Positions 55,348 to 63,818 of a stretch of DNA of 64,000 nucleotides are shown here, piece by piece. Each line of letters opens with the position of its first letter. Position 1 is the stretch's first letter. The DNA comes from Minisyncoccota bacterium (GTDB lineage Bacteria; Patescibacteriota; Minisyncoccia; Phycocordibacterales; UBA9973): NCBI GenBank assembly GCA_041658325.1, contig JBBAAI010000001.1, positions 154,869 through 218,868 of the forward strand, read 5' to 3'. Under the pieces are notes generated by a model, which ran no database searches, was not told where the DNA came from, and saw only the letters and a program-made list of their open reading frames with translations. Both the position numbers and the translations under genes were made by a program.

Positions 55348-55728
55348 ATGAAAGCTTTTTTAAAAAATTACAGACAATCCCCGAGGAAAGTTCGTTTAGT
55401 TGCTGGATTGATTAAGGGTAAAAACGTATCAGAGGCAATCGCTGAGTTAAATTTTTTAGCAAAACGTGCTGGGCTTCCGATCAAAAAACTTTTACTTTCT
55501 GCTGTTGCAAATGCAAAACAAATGGGTATTGAAGTAGATAATTTATTTATAAAAGAATTGCGAGTTGATAAAGGTATCGTAATGAAAAGAATGATGCCCG
55601 CAGCGATGGGTACAGGACACAGGATAAACAAGCGTACAAGTCACTTAAATCTTCTTTTAGCAGAAAAAGTTATAAAAAAACCAGCAAAAACGAAAGAAAT
55701 AAAAGCTAAGAAAGCAGTAAAAAAATAA
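55348..55728 (+). CDS. rplV: 50S ribosomal protein L22
   Basis: order; 126 aa. Confidence 0.9.
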   Translation: MKAFLKNYRQSPRKVRLVAGLIKGKNVSEAIAELNFLAKRAGLPIKKLLLSAVANAKQMGIEVDNLFIKELRVDKGIVMKRMMPAAMGTGHRINKRTSHLNLLLAEKVIKKPAKTKEIKAKKAVKK

Positions 55729-55729
55729 T

Positions 55730-56452
55730 ATGTCAAAAATAGTTCACCCATATGCACATAGATTGATTATATTAAGAGACTGGAAGTCTCGTTGGTTTGC
55801 TGATCCAAAAAAATATTTAATTTATCTAAAAGGAGATGTCTTACTTCGCCAGTTCTTGGAAAAGAAATTGCGTGGAATGTATATTTCTAGTATTGAAATT
55901 GAAAGAAGCAGGAAAGCTACTCGTTTTATAATTAAAACTTCTCGTCCTGGTCTTATTATTGGTAGAAGTGGAGAAGGAGCGACAAAACTCAAAGAAGAAA
56001 TTTTAAAGAAAATGGATAAATTAAAACTTCCAAGACCGGAAGATTTCAAACTTGAAATTATGGAAGTTTCAAATCCAGAAGCGGATGCGGCTATCGTGGC
56101 TTATATGATTGCTGAAGGATTAGAAAAGAGAATGCCTTATCGTAGAGTAATCAAACAAATTATTGAAAAAGTTATGCAAGCTCACGGAGTAGAGGGAGCG
56201 AGAGTGGTATTGTCAGGTCGTTTAGGAGGAGCTGAAATTGCTCGTACGGAAGAGCTTAAGCGTGGAAGTATTCCGCTTCAGACTTTCCGCGCGGACATAG
56301 ATTTCAAGCGAGAGCGAGCGACATTGTCTTATGGTGTTGTTGGTATTAAAGTTTGGATTTATCGGGGTAAAATTTTCTCTGAAAAGAAAGCTCGCACCGC
56401 TTTTTCTACAGCGCCAGTTAATGAAAAAGATAATAAATTAAAAACTGATTAA
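55730..56452 (+). CDS. rpsC: 30S ribosomal protein S3
   Basis: KH domain and GRLGGAEIAR motif. Confidence 0.95.
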   Translation: MSKIVHPYAHRLIILRDWKSRWFADPKKYLIYLKGDVLLRQFLEKKLRGMYISSIEIERSRKATRFIIKTSRPGLIIGRSGEGATKLKEEILKKMDKLKLPRPEDFKLEIMEVSNPEADAAIVAYMIAEGLEKRMPYRRVIKQIIEKVMQAHGVEGARVVLSGRLGGAEIARTEELKRGSIPLQTFRADIDFKRERATLSYGVVGIKVWIYRGKIFSEKKARTAFSTAPVNEKDNKLKTD

Positions 56453-56457
56453 ATATT

Positions 56458-56883
56458 ATGTTAGTACCCAAAAAAGTAAAATTTAGAAAATGGCAGACAG
56501 GACGTTCTAATCCAAAATCACGATCAGCTGATACTCGTGGTGTTAAACTTGCTTTTGGTTCTTATGGTTTAAAGTCTGAAACTCAAGCGAGAGTGAAATC
56601 AAACCAAATCGAATCTGCTCGAAAAGTTATTTCTCGTACCCTAACTAAAACTGGTAAATATTGGGTTCGTATTTTCCCAGATCGTCCGTATACAGCTAAA
56701 GCTGCGGAAGTGGGCATGGGAAAAGGAAAAGGAGACCCACAGGGATATTGTTTTGATGTTCTTCCTGGACGTATTATTTTTGAAGTAGATGGCGCAGATA
56801 AAAAAACTTCTCATGAAGCGCTTCGAAAAGCTGGGTCTAAGTTACCGATTAAAACCAGAATTGTCGGCAGAGTAAATGAATAA
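56458..56883 (+). CDS. rplP: 50S ribosomal protein L16
   Basis: MLVPKKVKFRK start. Confidence 0.95.
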   Translation: MLVPKKVKFRKWQTGRSNPKSRSADTRGVKLAFGSYGLKSETQARVKSNQIESARKVISRTLTKTGKYWVRIFPDRPYTAKAAEVGMGKGKGDPQGYCFDVLPGRIIFEVDGADKKTSHEALRKAGSKLPIKTRIVGRVNE

Positions 56884-56892
56884 TATTATTTT

Positions 56893-57105
56893 ATGGCAAA
56901 GACAAAGAAAAACTCAAGAGGAAATTTTAAAGAAATGACAGAAGCAGAGCTAAAAAAAGAGCTTGTTACTTTGCGAGATGGTTTACGAGTTATTCATTTT
57001 AAGTCTGAGGGCTCAAGATCAAAAAACGTCAAAGAATCTGCGACTTTAAAGAGACAAATAGCTAGAATGTTGACAGAAATGAATAAAAATAATAAAAAGC
57101 AATAA
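56893..57105 (+). CDS. rpmC: 50S ribosomal protein L29
   Basis: 70 aa helical; order. Confidence 0.85.
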   Translation: MAKTKKNSRGNFKEMTEAELKKELVTLRDGLRVIHFKSEGSRSKNVKESATLKRQIARMLTEMNKNNKKQ

Positions 57106-57108
57106 TAT

Positions 57109-57369
57109 ATGACAAAAAAGATACAAGAAAAGAATACTGAAAACAAAGGAAAATTCTTAAAAGGAGTGGTTGTTTCCGACAAAATGGACAAGACCGTTGT
57201 TGTGTCAGTTTCTCGATTTGTGAAGCATCCTTTGTATGGAAAGTTTTACAAAATTAGCAAGAAATACAAAGCTCACGATGAAGCTAATAAATATAAGATA
57301 GGAGATAAGGTAGAAATAGTGGAAACCAGACCGATTTCCAAAGATAAAAAGTTTAAAGTCGTGCAGTAA
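57109..57369 (+). CDS. rpsQ: 30S ribosomal protein S17
   Basis: [14 protein letters not shown] motif. Confidence 0.9.
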
Positions 57370-57384
57370 TTTTAATTAAATTTT

Positions 57385-57756
57385 ATGATTCAAAACGAAA
57401 CCTTAGTAAATATAACAGACAATGCCGGAGGCACCGTAGGAAAGGTGTTCAAGATTTTAGGCTCTTCCAAAAAGAGATATGCTACTTTGGGAGAATTGGT
57501 TATTATTTCAGTTAAAATAGCTTCTCCCCGCAAGGCCGTAAAGAAGAAAGATGTGCATCAGGCTGTCGTTGTACGCACTCGTGGTGCTTATAGAAGAAAA
57601 GACGGTTCATATATTCGTTTTGATGATAACGCGGTAGTTATTTTAGAAAAAGGGAAAAAAGATCCAAAAGCAGGCCGTATTTTTGGACCTATTCCAAGAG
57701 AATTGGCAGAGAAAGGATTTCAGAAAATAATTTCCTTGGCGCAAGAAGTTATATAG
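57385..57756 (+). CDS. rplN: 50S ribosomal protein L14
   Basis: MIQNETLVNITDNAGG typical. Confidence 0.95.
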   Translation: MIQNETLVNITDNAGGTVGKVFKILGSSKKRYATLGELVIISVKIASPRKAVKKKDVHQAVVVRTRGAYRRKDGSYIRFDDNAVVILEKGKKDPKAGRIFGPIPRELAEKGFQKIISLAQEVI

Positions 57757-57773
57757 TATTTTAAATAAAACAT

Positions 57774-57992
57774 ATGAAATTAAAAAAAGGAGACAATGTA
57801 AAAATAATCACCGGTAAAGACAAAGGAAAGTCTGGTAAAATTGTGCGAGCTTTGCCTAAAGAAAACAAAGTGATTGTTGAAGGTTTGAATATGATGAAAA
57901 AACATCAACGTCCTAGAAAGTCTGGGGAAAAAGGCACAATGGTAAATATTGCTATGCCTATCCACATTTCTAATGTTAAAAAAGCAGATTAA
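57774..57992 (+). CDS. rplX: 50S ribosomal protein L24 (short KOW form)
   Basis: MKLKKGDNVKIITGKDKGKSGKI KOW motif. Confidence 0.85.
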   Translation: MKLKKGDNVKIITGKDKGKSGKIVRALPKENKVIVEGLNMMKKHQRPRKSGEKGTMVNIAMPIHISNVKKAD

Positions 57993-58002
57993 ATAAAAAA
58001 TT

Positions 58003-58551
58003 ATGAAACACTTAAACGTAAAAGAAAAAGAAATAGAGGCATTTGGAAAAATGAAAGACGCTTTTCATTTTAAAAATGTGATGGCTTCTCCAAAAATGAA
58101 GAAAGTCGTAATCAATGTCGGCACAGGAACGATGGTCAAGAAAGACAAAAATAAAAATGAAGCCGTAGCAGACAGGTTAGCAAAAATTACCGGGCAAAAA
58201 ACTGCCTTGCGAGGAGCGAAGCAATCCATTTCTTCTTTTAAAATTCGCCAAGGAGATCCTGTCGGAGTTGTCGTCACTCTTCGTGGTAAAAGAATGTTCG
58301 CCTTTTTGGAAAAATTAATTAATGTGGCGCTTCCTCGTACGAAGGACTTCCGTGGTATTAATCGTAAAGCAGTAGATAATATCGGGAACTTAACTATCGG
58401 CATCAAAGAACATACCATTTTCCCAGAAACAGCTGATGAAGATATCCGCGACGTTTTCGGTTTGTCTATCACCCTTGTTTCAACTGCAAAAAACAAAAAA
58501 GAAGGCACCGCCTTCTTCGAACTCCTAGGTGTTCCTTTTAAAAAGGAATAA
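58003..58551 (+). CDS. rplE: 50S ribosomal protein L5
   Basis: 182 aa; order; conserved L5 core. Confidence 0.95.
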   Translation: MKHLNVKEKEIEAFGKMKDAFHFKNVMASPKMKKVVINVGTGTMVKKDKNKNEAVADRLAKITGQKTALRGAKQSISSFKIRQGDPVGVVVTLRGKRMFAFLEKLINVALPRTKDFRGINRKAVDNIGNLTIGIKEHTIFPETADEDIRDVFGLSITLVSTAKNKKEGTAFFELLGVPFKKE

Positions 58552-58561
58552 AACTTTCTAT

Positions 58562-58590
58562 TGACTTTTTCTTAAAATATGCTATCCTAT
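58562..58590 (+). promoter_or_regulatory. sigma70-like promoter for DGR target gene
   Basis: ttgact-N17-tatcct; followed by a 46-nt leader hairpin gtcatagcca...tggctatgac (58626-58671). Confidence 0.45.
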
Positions 58591-58750
58591 AAAGATAGTT
58601 CTTTAAAATTACTTGCGAAGGTGGTCATAGCCAAAAGGTGCTTAATATTAGGCATTTCCTGGCTATGACTACCGTTGTGGTTGTCCTCTAGCAAAAACCT
58701 AACCGATGCGTCCTATGGGATGTGTCAAAGAAAAAGGAAGGATGTGCCAA

Positions 58751-59377
58751 ATGGCAAATGCGTCCGAAATCTCTGTCGGTTTAGTTCACGAGCTCGCCAT
58801 CACGGGCACCAAGGTCGGATTCGAGCCCAAAGACTTCGCTACTCTCGCCCACAGCGAGGAAAGGATGTCTTCCATCCTCGGCGTGCTTCATGGTACGCAC
58901 GAGATCCGTCCGATCGATTATGTGATCGATTTCAACTCTCCGGCTCGGTTGCCGTTCAACGGTGCCGTGCTCGAGGTGCACCGCGGAACGGGCATCGTCA
59001 AGCTCGAGAAGAAGGCCGACGGCCTGTATCTCGACGGAAAGAAGCTCACGCTCTTTCTCTCCAAGAAGCAGAAAAAGGGAGGCGTCATCGAGGGCAACAA
59101 GCTTCGCATCGAGCTCGAAAAGAGGGGTAAAAATGTAGGAGCGAAACTCCTTGACCACTTCGTCGAGCATCCAGAGATGTGGCCCGAGGAGTGGAAGAAG
59201 GACGACCAGGGTAATACGCTCTACGTGTTTTTCTGGGATGACATCTTCCGCAACCCGGCGTGTGGCGATCTGTATGTCCGGTGTGGGTGCTGGCGCGGAG
59301 GCGAGGTCATCTCGGGCTACGACTGGCTCGGCGATGACTGGCGCGGCCGCAGCCCGGCTGTCTCTTCCGTAAGTTAG
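58751..59377 (+). CDS. DGR target (variable) protein; C-terminal VR; GC-rich
   Basis: About 208 aa. The 3' 124 bp is homologous to the TR with mismatches only at TR adenines. Start chosen at MANASEISVG (aggaagg SD 9 nt upstream); ORF track alternative start is 58706. Confidence 0.75.
   Translation: MANASEISVGLVHELAITGTKVGFEPKDFATLAHSEERMSSILGVLHGTHEIRPIDYVIDFNSPARLPFNGAVLEVHRGTGIVKLEKKADGLYLDGKKLTLFLSKKQKKGGVIEGNKLRIELEKRGKNVGAKLLDHFVEHPEMWPEEWKKDDQGNTLYVFFWDDIFRNPACGDLYVRCGCWRGGEVISGYDWLGDDWRGRSPAVSSVS
59246..59369 (+). repeat. DGR variable repeat (VR)
   Basis: ttccgcaacccggcg...gctgtctcttccg; 104/124 identical to TR; all 20 mismatches lie opposite TR adenines. Confidence 0.85.
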
Positions 59378-59426
59378 TAATCAGAACTTTGCCTCTTGGA
59401 TCTTCTTGATCCTTGAGACTTAGTCC

Positions 59427-59473
59427 TTGGGCCCTGTGTGTTTGCTTCGGCATTCGCGCAGGGCCTTTTGTTT
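59427..59473 (+). terminator. hairpin + T-run after target gene
   Basis: gggccctg tgtgtttgcttcggcattcgcg cagggcc ttttgtttt. Confidence 0.55.
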
Positions 59474-59706
59474 TGGTAAAATAAATATGGTAGTAGGTGA
59501 ATACGCGAGCGACCACGGTTTCTCGCTACCGAATCCAGTATCCGTATGTCGAGAATATTTGCGACTAAGGTTTCAAATAGGGTGATATACGAAGACACTT
59601 CAAAAATGAAGTTACTTGGTGTAAGGTGCTATGGCATTACGATGCCGAATACGATACAACCTTGAGAGTATTCAAAAGGTGGTGGCACAGAAGGCAGCTT
59701 ACACAT

Positions 59707-59830
59707 TTCCGCAACCCGGCGAATGGCAATCTGTATGTCCGGTATGGGTACTGGAACGAAGGCAAGGTCATCTCGAACTACAACTGGCTCGACAATGACT
59801 GGAACGGCAACAACCCGGCTATCTCTTCCG
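59707..59830 (+). repeat. DGR template repeat (TR)
   Basis: Intergenic copy of VR, rich in AAC/AAT codons (nine Asn codons in VR frame). The open frame in the ORF track (59626..59859) is a consequence of VR homology. Confidence 0.85.
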
Positions 59831-59839
59831 CAACTTACT

Positions 59840-60205
59840 TCATTTCTCTCTCGTCTTAACGGCGGGAGAGTTTTGTTTTAGGAGTTGTCCGTTCCAACCC
59901 CCGAGCATTTTTCCAATTTCTTCTATTTTTTGAGAAAGAACAATATATTTTTTATCGTCAATTGATTTTGCTTCCCATAAAACCATCAAAAGTATTTTTA
60001 GAGTATCTGATTTTCGTATCGCTAACCGAACCCAAGGATGTTTTTCTTCTCGAGATAAAAAAGTAGCGATAGAAACAGCTTCAATAATTTCAATAAACAT
60101 CGTATCAATCTTTAATCCCAAAGAGTGCTTGTGTATTTTGGGCAGAATTTGATAAAAGGTAATCCAGAGAAGATAACAGCTCTTAACTTTTGCCAATAAT
60201 GGCAA
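59840..60205 (-). CDS. avd: Avd-like four-helix-bundle accessory protein (TIGR02436 / 23S rRNA-IVS protein family-like)
   Basis: About 120 aa; EAVSIATFLSRE and EEIGKMLGGW match the AVSIPSNIAEG and eeIgkML signatures of the family; lies between TR and RT on the opposite strand; apparent TTG start. Confidence 0.5.
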   Translation of the reverse strand: MPLLAKVKSCYLLWITFYQILPKIHKHSLGLKIDTMFIEIIEAVSIATFLSREEKHPWVRLAIRKSDTLKILLMVLWEAKSIDDKKYIVLSQKIEEIGKMLGGWNGQLLKQNSPAVKTREK

Positions 60206-60210
60206 AAGTT

Positions 60211-60220
60211 GGGGGGGGGG
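60211..60220. repeat. G10 homopolymeric tract in the divergent avd/RT intergenic region
   Basis: gtt gggggggggg tac, 17 nt upstream of the RT ATG. Confidence 0.9.
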
Positions 60221-60236
60221 TACTATTATAAATACT

Positions 60237-61253
60237 ATGTCCCGAATCCAATTTAGTCATACTTACGACTATATCATTTCTCTAGAAAATCTGCTTTTGG
60301 CGTGGAAAGAATTTGTTGTCGGCAAGAAAAATCGCAAAGACGTAGAAGAATTTCAAAGAAATTTGATGACTAATATAATTTCGTTACATACGGATTTAGT
60401 AAATAAAGCATACAAGCATTCCCAATATGAAGCATTTAATATTTCTGACCCAAAACCGCGCAATATTCACAAAGCGAAAGTACGGGACAGATTATTACAT
60501 CATGCGATTTATCGAGTTTTGTATCCTTTTTTTGACAGGACATTTATTACTGACTCCTATTCTTGCAGAAAAAACAAAGGAACACATAAAGCCATAAACA
60601 GATTCAGAAAATTTGCCTATCAAGCGTCAAAAAATCATACCAGAACAGTTTGGGTTTTGAAAGGGGATATTAAAAAATTCTTTGCTAATATTGATCACGA
60701 AATATTAAAAGGAATTTTGAGAAAACATATTCAAGATAAAAATGTTCTTTGGCTCTTGGGGCAGGTGATAGATAGCTTTTCTTCCCAAAAACATATTTAC
60801 GCTATCGCTGATATATGCAGTAAGGGTTTACCACTCGGCAATCTAACTTCCCAACTTTTAGTAAATATTTATATGAATGAATTTGATCAATTTGTGAAAC
60901 ATAAAATCAAAGCGAAACACTATGTTCGTTATGCGGATGATTTTGTAATTTTGTCGCAAAATAGAAAATGGTTAGAAAATACAATTGTTAGAATAAAAGA
61001 TTTTCTTGAAAATGAACTTATGCTTTCTTTACATCCTGCAAAATTATCCATAAGTACCGTTGCCTCTGGCGTGGATTTTTTGGGTTGGGTTTTATTTCCA
61101 GACCATAGGGTAGTCAGGACTATCACGAAACGGAGGATGTTTCATGGTGTAAAAAAGAAGCACGGGAGTTTTGAAACAGTGCAATCATATCTAGGCTTGT
61201 TAAGCCATGGAAATGCAAGAAAGTTAGAAAGTGAGATAAAAAATTATATTTGA
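60237..61253 (+). CDS. DGR-type reverse transcriptase
   Basis: RT motifs 1-2 (ISDPKPRNIHKAKVRDRLLHHAIY), motif 4 LGNLTSQLLVNIYM with DGR-specific SQ, motif 5 YVRYADDFVIL (YADD); 338 aa. Confidence 0.85.
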   Translation: MSRIQFSHTYDYIISLENLLLAWKEFVVGKKNRKDVEEFQRNLMTNIISLHTDLVNKAYKHSQYEAFNISDPKPRNIHKAKVRDRLLHHAIYRVLYPFFDRTFITDSYSCRKNKGTHKAINRFRKFAYQASKNHTRTVWVLKGDIKKFFANIDHEILKGILRKHIQDKNVLWLLGQVIDSFSSQKHIYAIADICSKGLPLGNLTSQLLVNIYMNEFDQFVKHKIKAKHYVRYADDFVILSQNRKWLENTIVRIKDFLENELMLSLHPAKLSISTVASGVDFLGWVLFPDHRVVRTITKRRMFHGVKKKHGSFETVQSYLGLLSHGNARKLESEIKNYI

Positions 61254-61391
61254 CTCTTTTGGGATTATTTGCTAATATCAAAACAAGGGAATAGGGCTTT
61301 GATTAATCCACTTTTCTCCTTTAATTCTTTAGTTTTAAAGGGTTAAAGAAAAAAAGTGAGATATTAACGGAGCAATCCTGATAAATTATTT

Positions 61392-61577
61392 ATGGCAAAA
61401 ACATCAGTAAAAGCTAGAGCAGCAAAAAAACCAAAATTTTCTACTCGACAGAAAAATCGATGTTTTCGCTGTGGCCGAGGAAATGGTTTTATGCGTGATT
61501 TCGGTATTTGCCGAATTTGTTTTAGAGAATTAGCAAACGAAGGAATGCTTCCGGGTGTTCGTAAATCAAGTTGGTAA
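61392..61577 (+). CDS. rpsZ: 30S ribosomal protein S14 type Z (zinc-binding)
   Basis: 61 aa; [23 protein letters not shown]. Confidence 0.95.
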
Positions 61578-61583
61578 AATTTT

Positions 61584-61970
61584 ATGGATCCAATTTCAAA
61601 CATGATAATAATAATGAAGAACGGAAGCCTTGCAAACAAGGAGTCTGTTTCAATTCCTTTTTCTAAGATGAAAAATGCGATCGGCGAATGTTTGAAAAAA
61701 GCTGGATATGTTTCTGAAGTTTCAAAAAAAGTTAAAAAAGGTCAGCCAGTTTTAGAAGTGGGGCTGATCTATGTAGATAAAAAACCAAAAATCGCAGAAG
61801 TAGAAAGAATTTCTAAACAATCTCGCCGAGTTTATTTTGGTATGAAAGATATTCATTCTGTCCGAAATGGCTCAGGCTTGCTTGTGCTTTCAACACCGAA
61901 AGGAATTTTGTCAGGCAAAGATGCTCGCAAAGAACAAGTTGGAGGCGAAGCATTATTTAGAATTTGGTAG
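61584..61970 (+). CDS. rpsH: 30S ribosomal protein S8
   Basis: order; 128 aa. Confidence 0.9.
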   Translation: MDPISNMIIIMKNGSLANKESVSIPFSKMKNAIGECLKKAGYVSEVSKKVKKGQPVLEVGLIYVDKKPKIAEVERISKQSRRVYFGMKDIHSVRNGSGLLVLSTPKGILSGKDARKEQVGGEALFRIW

Positions 61971-62512
61971 AAAATTTTATGAGTAGAATAGGCAAACAAG
62001 AAATATTAATACCAGCCGGAATAAAGATCACCCAAAGTGGTGGAGTTGTTGCTGTAGTAGGCCCAAAAGGAACACTTACTAAAAATTTCAGAGATGATAT
62101 TACTATTACCATTACTGATAAAATGGTAACTTTAAATATAAAAAGAAACGATAAATTTTCCAAATCTCTCTGGGGTACCTATGCTTCACATATAAAAAAT
62201 ATGATTACTGGTGTCCAAGTTCCATATCAAAAGAAATTAATTTTAGAAGGAGTTGGATTTAAGTCTGAGGTTAAGGGCAAAGAACTCCATTTCGCTCTTG
62301 GTTTTTCTCATCCTGTTATTGTAAAAATTCCAGAAGGCATTACTGCTACTGCAGAGAAAAACAATATTACCATTACTGGTATTGATAAAGAATTAGTTGG
62401 TAGTTTCACCGCGGCTGTTCGTGCCCTGAAGAAACCAGAACCATATAAAGGTAAAGGAATGCGTTATGAAGGTGAAGTTATCAGACGAAAACAAGGCAAG
62501 AAGACAGTGTAA
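61964..62512 (+). CDS. rplF: 50S ribosomal protein L6
   Basis: order; two-domain L6. Confidence 0.9.
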   Translation: MVENFMSRIGKQEILIPAGIKITQSGGVVAVVGPKGTLTKNFRDDITITITDKMVTLNIKRNDKFSKSLWGTYASHIKNMITGVQVPYQKKLILEGVGFKSEVKGKELHFALGFSHPVIVKIPEGITATAEKNNITITGIDKELVGSFTAAVRALKKPEPYKGKGMRYEGEVIRRKQGKKTV

Positions 62513-62530
62513 AAATAATTTTAAAATAAA

Positions 62531-62872
62531 ATGATTAAAAAAGACGACAAAAGAATACGCTTAAAGAAAAAGATCAGAGTAAAAATCCAGGGTACTGATA
62601 TGCGTCCTCGCTTGACCGTTTTTCGATCCAACAAGTTTATTTATGCTCAAGTTATAAATGATGTGACAGGCAAGACTTTGGCGCAAGCGAGCGACGTGAA
62701 GACGACCAAAGGCACAAAGACAGAGCGAGCGAAAGAAGTCGGGAAGTCTATCGGCGCAGCTTGTCTCGCAAAAAAAATTAAGAAAGTTGTTTTTGATCGT
62801 AATGGATTTAAATATACTGGAAGAATAAAATTAGTAGCTGACGAAGCCCGCGTCAGTGGTCTTGAGTTTTAG
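62531..62872 (+). CDS. rplR: 50S ribosomal protein L18
   Basis: order; RLTVFRSNKFIYAQVI motif. Confidence 0.9.
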   Translation: MIKKDDKRIRLKKKIRVKIQGTDMRPRLTVFRSNKFIYAQVINDVTGKTLAQASDVKTTKGTKTERAKEVGKSIGAACLAKKIKKVVFDRNGFKYTGRIKLVADEARVSGLEF

Positions 62873-62891
62873 GGATTAGAATTTTAACTTT

Positions 62892-63482
62892 ATGGAAAAC
62901 ACAAAAGCAAAAGAAAATACAGGAACAAGAGAAAAAAGAAACAGTGGCCGTCGAGGTTCCTCTTTCAACAGAGTCAAGCCAGAATTTGATCAAAAGATTT
63001 TAAATATTCGCCGAGTTACTCGTGTGGTCGCTGGTGGACGCAGATTTTCTTTTTCTGTAGCGCTTGTCGCGGGGGACAAAAAGGGAGCTGTTGGTTTAGG
63101 ATTGGGAAAAGCTGGAGATACCGCTTTGGCGATCAATAAAGCTTTAAGAAATGCCAAGAAAAATATGATTAGATTGAATCTTACCAAAACAATGTCTATT
63201 CCGCATGAGCTATCTGCTAAGTTTTCAAGTTCATCTGTGATGTTAAGGCCTAACAAAGGTCGTGGGCTTGTGGCTGGTTCGGTTATTCGAGACATTATAA
63301 AACTTTCCGGAGTTAAAGATATTACTGGAAAAATTTTATCCAACAGTAAAAATAAATTAAATAATGCAAAGGCAGTAATGTCGGCGTTATCCGTGATTTC
63401 TTCAAAATACGCAAAAATCGCCCCAGAAAGTGTAGTTGTCGCGGGGAAGGAAGTAACTGTACCAGTAGAAGAATCCCAGTAG
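62892..63482 (+). CDS. rpsE: 30S ribosomal protein S5
   Basis: dsRBD + S5 C-domain; RVTRVVAGGRRFSF. Confidence 0.95.
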   Translation: MENTKAKENTGTREKRNSGRRGSSFNRVKPEFDQKILNIRRVTRVVAGGRRFSFSVALVAGDKKGAVGLGLGKAGDTALAINKALRNAKKNMIRLNLTKTMSIPHELSAKFSSSSVMLRPNKGRGLVAGSVIRDIIKLSGVKDITGKILSNSKNKLNNAKAVMSALSVISSKYAKIAPESVVVAGKEVTVPVEESQ

Positions 63483-63515
63483 TAGAGTAAAGCTCACTAC
63501 GGGATAAATAATTTT

Positions 63516-63818
63516 ATGCAAATACATAATTTAAAAAGAGAACATAAGAATAAAAAAGACAGACTTGTTGGTCGTGGAGGAAAACATGCGAAGACTTCTG
63601 GCCGTGGAGGAAAAGGACAAACAGCCCGCGCGGGTAACAAGCGTCGCCCAGAGCTTCGTGATATCATTAAGAAATTGCCTAAGAATCGCGGATATCAATT
63701 TAAGTCCATTCAAAAGGTTTTTATCTTAGAGAAAGACAAACTTGCTAATAAGACAGAGAAATTTTCTGAAATACGAAAACGTTTAGGAATCAAAGGAAAA
63801 AAGATCAGAATTAAATAA
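63516..63818 (+). CDS. rplO: 50S ribosomal protein L15 (short)
   Basis: GRGGKHAKTSGRGGKGQTARAG Gly/Arg-rich N-terminus; follows rpsE directly (no L30). Confidence 0.8.
   Translation: MQIHNLKREHKNKKDRLVGRGGKHAKTSGRGGKGQTARAGNKRRPELRDIIKKLPKNRGYQFKSIQKVFILEKDKLANKTEKFSEIRKRLGIKGKKIRIK

Follow-up and report, generated by a model that had tools for sequence, protein, structure and literature searches.

The Avd of Bordetella phage BPP-1 (4dwl; 8ube/8ub7) is a small basic four-helix bundle whose gene adjoins the DGR reverse transcriptase (RT) and the TR, and in the Bordetella system the activity of the reverse transcriptase (bRT) needs Avd (Handa et al. 2018). Among CPR bacteria (Patescibacteria), which hold a large share of the known DGRs, the order TR-(avd)-RT is described as Architecture B3 and accounts for 90% of the DGRs (Wu et al. 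2018, NAR 46:11, PMC5758913). The searched passages of that paper arrange TR, avd and RT just as found here, and they mention no avd repeat tract, no head-to-head overlap of avd and RT and no hairpin after TR.

Simple-sequence-repeat (SSR) contingency loci are another described system to which the locus can be compared, such as the poly-G/C loci of Neisseria and Campylobacter and the tetranucleotide loci lic and mod of Haemophilus. In these loci the repeat lies just after the start codon, the length of the unit is indivisible by 3, in-frame and out-of-frame alleles are found among close relatives, and the tract is conspicuous against the rest of the genome; all this is also seen in the avd loci described below, provided that avd starts at the upstream ATG proposed for it. 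Unlike the known contingency genes, which encode surface structures or restriction-modification enzymes, avd encodes an accessory factor of targeted hypermutation; its hosts are CPR bacteria, unlike those of the known SSR loci, and its switching is putative.

Here we analysed an avd ORF and the DGR around it in a stretch of 64 kb (the window, by which we mean the whole stretch), together with related loci. Compared to the avd of BPP-1, the gene in the window lies between TR and RT on the strand opposite to both, it reaches into the RT start at its 5' end, where it also has a repeat tract, and into the hairpin after TR at its 3' end, and the sequence identity of the two proteins is only 14-16%. 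The Avd assignment and the B3 arrangement are already known. On the repeat tract, the head-to-head overlap and the post-TR hairpin, no description was found in the literature searched; likewise, a literature search on phase variation, homopolymers, slipped-strand events or frameshifts in DGRs or Avd returned nothing relevant, and the novelty of these features is provisional.

The DGR cassette and its architecture

The DGR around the ORF is real (Table 1). VR and TR form a 131-nt direct repeat, 83% identical, with VR placed at the 3' end of the target gene, and 20 of the 22 mismatches between the two copies are at TR adenines. The last two mismatches (59831 and 59834) are past the part with adenine mutagenesis and close to where the repeat ends on its 3' side, which is where we would place IMH/IMH*. 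Furthermore, the RT translation contains GNLTSQ and YADD, which we take to be typical motifs of DGR RTs.

Table 1. Positions of the DGR features in the window.
Feature	Position	Strand	Description	Basis or location
Target gene	58706..59377	+	223 aa, 55% G+C	VR inside, at 59246-59376
Strong hairpin + TTTTGTTTTGG	59429..59476	+	-29.2 kcal/mol, z = -5.7	Downstream of VR and target stop
TR	59707..59837	+	Adenine-specific differences span 59722-59821	VR/TR repeat comparison
Avd core ORF	59840..60205	-	121 aa from TTG	ORF list, profiles, AlphaFold2, Foldseek
Terminator-like hairpin, CTCTCTCGTC-TTAAC-GGCGGGAGAG + TTTTGTTTT	59846..59879	+	Directly 3' of TR	Scan, covariation, folding
avd 5' leader, conserved	60206..60260	-	ATG at 60260-60258	Frame statistics in relatives
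Homopolymeric tract, candidate slipped-strand switch	60211..60220	.	G10 on +, C10 on the avd strand	
DGR reverse transcriptase	60237..61253	+	338 aa	RVT_1 E=1.5e-25

The order of the window DGR is the standard one of CPR: target gene with VR, TR, avd on the reverse strand, RT. The original prediction had placed avd antisense to the target gene and RT, and this is the case, the ORF being on the minus strand and the target gene, TR and RT on the plus strand. It had also described the ORF as the only one between TR and RT. From the end of TR (59837) to the start of RT (60237), the ORFs of at least 40 aa are one on the minus strand plus TR-derived ones on the plus strand (59626..59859 and 59723..59881), which are the TR read as protein; the description holds if these are set aside. 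The ORF at 59626-59859 has 77 aa and a GTG start, spans the TR and resembles the C-terminus of the target (…NGNLYVRYGYWNEGKVISNYNWLDNDWNGNNPAISSA), with AAC codons that coincide with the variable positions; it is probably no gene, just the TR in the target frame.

The divergent arrangement of avd and RT had been considered atypical in the original prediction, with the suggestion to look for the same orientation in relatives. In species-representative genomes, RT is directly upstream of and divergent to avd in 77 of the 80 related loci, and the ORF is conserved. For this clade the arrangement is thus not atypical, as Architecture B3 in the literature also indicates, and the orientation is unusual only relative to the Bordetella phage.

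The ORF is an Avd-family four-helix bundle

The ORF encodes an Avd-family four-helix bundle and is the genuine avd gene of a chromosomal CPR DGR, as had been proposed from the sequence of its product of about 120 aa. Two Avd profiles matched it with strong E-values, far from what chance would give, yet both with scores below the curated cut-offs: NF033474 (DivGenRetAVD) with E=1.9e-14 and 53.8 bits, against an NCBIfam cut-off of 80, and Pfam bAvd (PF22296) with E=3.9e-9 and 37.4 bits, against a gathering score of 40. The NF033474 alignment pairs residues 1-104 of the ORF with positions 1-102 of the 104 of the profile. The database contains more than 1000 homologues, most of them in Nomurabacteria, Parcubacteria and other Patescibacteria; identity to the ORF is 70-99% for the best 120, and all these 120 carry a precomputed PF22296 match. 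The two signatures expected for the family are both present, EEIGKML at residues 95-101 and AVSI at residues 43-46, and residues E96, G98, M100, L101, G102, G103 and W104 are invariant among 26 homologues. The computed pI of the window copy (121 aa) is 9.68, where Avd proteins have a mean pI of 9.5 +/- 0.7 (Wu et al. 2018, PMC5758913).

The AlphaFold2 model, obtained with the alignment of the 26 homologues as input, gives the predicted four helices (residues 2-18, 23-48, 52-78 and 84-100) with a mean pLDDT of 86.2 and a pTM of 0.77, followed by a disordered tail (residues 106-121). A Foldseek search of the PDB matched the model to Bordetella Avd 4dwl (TM 0.72-0.82, rmsd ~2.1-2.5 A over ~105 columns) and to the Avd chains of the bRT-Avd RNP (8ube, 8ub7 and 8ubb), with a TM range of 0.71-0.82 over 4dwl and the chains of 8ube/8ub7. 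Sequence searches of the PDB, both with the ORF protein and with the family profile, gave no relevant match, so within the PDB the link to Bordetella Avd comes from the structure comparison only. The top structural matches were bundles of the 23S rRNA IVS type (2gsc and 2rld; TM 0.70-0.85), which share the four-helix-bundle fold; however, the corresponding Pfam family, PF05635, reached only E=0.12 on the ORF, and the context of the ORF, unlike that of the 23S rRNA IVS proteins, is a DGR.

The start of avd and the leader that overlaps RT

Originally, avd had been read from the TTG at 60205, and the stretch between this codon and the RT ATG at 60237 as a 31-bp shared promoter region. In the alignment of 81 sequences, the codon aligned with the TTG of the window is TTG in 32, TTA in 31, CTA in 9, CTG and ATA in 3 each, CTC in 2 and CTT in 1, and the few codons after this position hold no conserved canonical start. 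Because the aligned codon is TTA, CTA, CTC, CTT or ATA in many relatives, the TTG is probably a conserved leucine and not the native start. The proposed TTG start is therefore not conserved: the position is Leu or Ile in the 81 sequences, and the frame continues upstream. As regards the shared promoter, the gap is indeed 31 nt long, but it does not look like a plain promoter, as it holds the conserved G10/C10 tract and in relatives belongs to the avd reading frame.

Many Avd homologues in the database are 138-139 aa long and begin with the pattern 'M.KL...H....PPP(P)LLPLLAK', their frame passing through the C-run up to an ATG. In the window, the corresponding ATG is located 55 nt before the core and is the antisense of RT codon 8 (CAT, His), while the RT ATG has its antisense in codon 8 (CAT) of the avd leader; the head-to-head overlap of avd and RT thus measures 24 nt and takes up RT codons 1-8. 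In the 74 loci having both landmarks, the frame of the ATG is open up to the repeat in 73, out-of-frame loci included, against 8 and 5 of 74 for the other two frames, a signal that is partly non-independent since the leader shares its first 8 codons with RT coding sequence, which constrains them. Over the ~5 leader codons that are free of the RT overlap, a stop is present in 0, 7 and 54 of the 74 loci for frames 0, 1 and 2, respectively.

We also looked at what precedes the start codons. A/T-rich sequence lies directly before the start codon at all 15 gene starts examined, RT included, and a Shine-Dalgarno (SD)-like match occurs at RT alone, where it corresponds to its G-run. The upstream ATG of avd is preceded by an A/T-rich leader, the TTG by the C10. 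We infer that ATG 60260-60258 is the native start of avd, as a part of the whole explanation weighed below and with the probability given there.

A repeat tract at the avd/RT junction

The G10 is the sole G/C run of at least 7 nt in the 64 kb of the window, which has 36% G+C. The same concentration at one site is evident in relatives: 827 kb from 133 related loci contain 86 G/C runs of at least 8 nt, and 84 of these are at the avd/RT junction. The poly-C tracts of relatives range from C7 to C13, and in other loci the C-run is substituted, at the same site, by (CAAT)7, (CAGC)9-11, (CAAC)3-11, (CGAA)9, (CAGT)5-13, (CA)8 or (CAGCAAT)11, with repeats that reach 40-77 nt (tetranucleotides repeated 10-13 times and the heptanucleotide repeated 11 times). 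The repeat units are 1, 2, 4 and 7 nt long, none divisible by 3. No unit produces a stop codon on the avd strand, whereas two units, inspected by eye, would do so on the RT strand.

We then computed frame statistics on 134 unique related loci. In repeat-less loci the distance from RT to the core is 27 nt in 15 loci, 18 nt in 3 and 36 nt in 2, each of these lengths being divisible by 3, and 20 of 24 are in frame with the ATG by junction length (21 in and 3 out by a stricter criterion). Conversely, only 22 of the 96 poly-C loci are in frame, the split over the 0, +1 and +2 states being 22/47/27; for loci with repeats other than poly-C, the split is 7/3/4. When loci were clustered at 80-90% avd DNA identity, from 10/12 to 16/20 of the repeat-less clusters were in frame, compared to 16/56 to 25/89 of the repeat-bearing ones (Fisher p 7e-4 to 5e-5), and the in-frame share of the latter was indistinguishable from one third. 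In 'locked' loci the prolines are kept by mixed CCG/CCA codons (CCG CCG CCG in L034, CCG CCA CCG in L116; also L069).

Several pairs of close relatives differ in the tract. Four pairs (L105/L129, L106/L128, L055/L104 and L052/L134) have different tract lengths with 630-nt flanks that are 100% identical, and L054/L144 also differ in length, with 630-nt flanks 99.4/99.7% identical; these pairs come from different short-read assemblies, in which homopolymer lengths can be wrong. In L105/L129, C9 is in frame and C10 out of frame. The flanks of L048/L124 are identical as well, and here a single substitution interrupts the tract.

The feature extends well past the close family, as indicated by the presence of PPP within the first 75 residues in 30 of the 150 best representatives of 50%-identity clusters, which are 32-75% identical to the query. 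After residue 75, the same 150 representatives contain 2 occurrences of PPP in 6784 residues.

Among the poly-C loci, the +1 state is in excess (47, versus 22 in frame and 27 in +2), contrary to a simple random-phase model. This could reflect a mutational bias, selection for the OFF state, or a second start. Regarding the last of these, some +1 loci have an in-frame ATG within a CATG palindrome at the start of RT; the G after CAT is present in 5 of 26 +1 loci versus 1 of 19 in each of the other phases, which are small numbers.

The state of the window copy

With the C10 of the window, leader and core are in different frames (the +1 state), and the leader is only 25 codons long: from ATG 60260 it reads MTKLDSGHSIYNSTPPPTFAIIGKS and then a stop. 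With one C fewer or two more (C9 or C12), the same ATG opens an unbroken Avd of 138 or 139 aa, MTKLDSGHSIYNSTPP(P)QLLPLLAKVK... The two assemblies that carry the exact RT are identical over 2.6 kb, G10 and VR included. Gene calls for this avd are a 93-aa fragment on the source contig and 86 aa in the second assembly. Annotation pipelines thus mis-call avd genes that carry the tract, and DGR surveys that demand an intact avd may misjudge the activity of the element. Over this one avd family in the database, the lengths of gene calls vary from 93 to 195 aa with the phase of the tract and the alternative start chosen, so that the inconsistency is systematic.

A candidate slipped-strand switch on avd

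The best explanation for these patterns, to which we assign a probability of about 60%, would be a slipped-strand ON/OFF switch acting on avd through the repeat in its 5' coding leader. According to this explanation, avd would start at the upstream ATG, antisense inside the first 8 RT codons, and a hypermutable simple-sequence repeat, C10 in the window, would separate the ATG from the Avd core. Slipped-strand gain or loss of repeat units would bring the core in or out of frame, and the tract of the window, one base too long, would leave its avd in the OFF phase. An OFF phase would mean no Avd and, presumably, no diversification. The tract would then turn mutagenic retrohoming ON and OFF in a way that is stochastic, heritable and reversible, with switching expected to occur within populations.

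The Avd family is characterised by pentamers that bind the RT and without which no cDNA is made. cDNA synthesis by the Bordetella RT requires Avd, and, since Avd is needed for bRT activity there, a switch in the tract would gate diversification. If this is true, the switch would be a simple means to restrain or time DGR mutagenesis at the level of the population, with diversification confined to a subpopulation and a working variable protein retained by most cells. The wider reading, that across CPR the avd repeat just after the start is a contingency locus over a diversity generator and that the copy in the window is OFF, is in our judgement somewhat better than an even bet.

The repeat could instead be non-coding and lie in shared divergent promoters or in the 5' UTR of RT, with translation of avd beginning at the TTG or at some other codon close to the core, and with a repeat length that tunes the transcription of avd and/or RT, as in the (TA)n of Haemophilus hifA/hifB and in the poly-C switches of Bordetella fim. 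The position of the tract is compatible with this: it lies 16 nt upstream of the RT start codon and is flanked by weak hexamers that resemble -35 and -10 elements (the latter TATTAT at 60224-60229, found by eye), and a weak plus-strand promoter-like site at 60173-60200 ends just short of it. TTG is indeed the first codon of the window ORF, and the alignment to the Avd profile includes residue 1 from the outset; in addition, TTG (or ATA/ATT) could still start some translation in the window copy. On the other hand, the aligned codon is no start codon in about half of the relatives, and the promoter scan gave 4 sites versus 2.7 +/- 1.7 in shuffled sequence, which is not above expectation. Repeats of 40-77 nt are incompatible with a -35/-10 spacing, and a spacer would not explain repeat-less junctions of 18, 27 and 36 nt that are in frame, a leader frame free of stops, or the lack of any repeat unit divisible by 3. 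Overall, we consider a purely non-coding role unlikely. Still, an additional effect of the tract on RT transcription is quite possible, given its position 16 nt upstream of the RT ATG.

Programmed transcriptional slippage or ribosomal frameshifting at the tract, which would yield a fixed fraction of Avd from any DNA phase and leave the OFF state of the DNA not truly off, could account for the 74 of 96 poly-C loci that are out of frame in consensus assemblies, with the +1 state of 47/96 perhaps as the preferred configuration. We regard such recoding as quite improbable, because di-, tetra- and heptanucleotide repeats, classic substrates of slipped-strand events and not recoding signals, are found at the same site, the in-frame, +1 and +2 states are all present, and repeat-less loci are simply in frame. 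Less probable again is that the tract has no regulatory meaning, being a homopolymer assembly error, a sign of an avd pseudogene or, for example, a poly-proline linker. G/C homopolymers of at least 10 nt are error-prone in short-read data, and the leader does encode PPP in in-frame relatives. However, the G10 is present in two assemblies, and the frame is broken in about 70% of independent assemblies, more than consensus errors would explain; the Avd core is intact and 70-88% identical to relatives; pure C-runs are kept at ~36% G+C, where mixed Pro codons are expected; and the replacement repeats of some loci encode quite different residues. Compared to the slipped-strand switch, all these alternatives agree less well with repeats as long as 40-77 nt, with the diversity of repeat types and with repeat-less loci being in frame.

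Hairpins after TR and VR

The hairpin directly after TR was the sole terminator-like site found in the scan. A hairpin of at least 6 pairs ending at a T-run is present in 113 of 124 relatives, and in the 81-sequence alignment 8 of the 11 pairs show compensatory changes, with many U-G pairs that are valid on the TR strand only. The folding energy is -16 kcal/mol (z = -5) on the plus strand versus -8.3 on the minus strand. Read in antisense, the hairpin corresponds to the C-terminal tail of Avd, 'KQNSPAVKTREK', which is conserved yet disordered ('KQNSP..REK'). In Avd variants of 116 aa the avd stop falls in the loop of the hairpin; the 5' arm is then outside the ORF and is still conserved, which argues that the hairpin, and not the tail peptide, is under selection.

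From these patterns, the hairpin probably terminates or structures the TR RNA, and, being conserved, it probably marks the 3' limit of the CPR DGR RNA or a structural element within it. In that case TR, avd and RT would each be transcribed on their own, and the TR RNA would converge with the avd mRNA.

Just 5' of the post-TR stem lies TTCATTTCTC, a pyrimidine-rich segment with a single A that is nearly invariant (79 of 81 sequences). As speculation only, this A could be the counterpart of the priming adenosine in the Sp region of Bordetella.

The strong hairpin downstream of VR is followed by TTTTGTTTTGG, the same T-run motif as after the TR hairpin, and may be the terminator of the target gene, a DGR target-site hairpin, or both. 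An Rfam scan of the 64-kb window returned six tRNAs only, none of them in the DGR.

Genomic context of the cassette

In IMG/VR, one matching contig only was found for phage carriage of the avd family. The target gene has a G+C content of 55%, compared to ~33% in its flanks, a difference that suggests its acquisition from elsewhere.

The whole DGR (58552-61391) interrupts a ribosomal protein operon between rplE (58003..58551) and rpsN (61392..61577). We considered this insertion as a possible general trait and discarded the idea, since of the 134 related loci just one, that of the closest relative (L002), is inserted at this position; Wu et al. 2018 (PMC5758913) mention five DGRs of CPR in which ribosomal protein genes occur in between the DGR genes.

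In the region 55700-63600, Shine-Dalgarno-like sequences are missing upstream of the DGR target gene and of all 13 ribosomal protein genes examined, and the leaders of the ribosomal protein genes are A/T-rich. Thus, the source organism appears to initiate translation independently of SD sequences.

Lastly, an inverted repeat is present between rplE and the target gene, at 58620-58673 (27 nt, 78% complementary, with a 0-nt loop), and it sits at the left edge of the inserted DGR segment.
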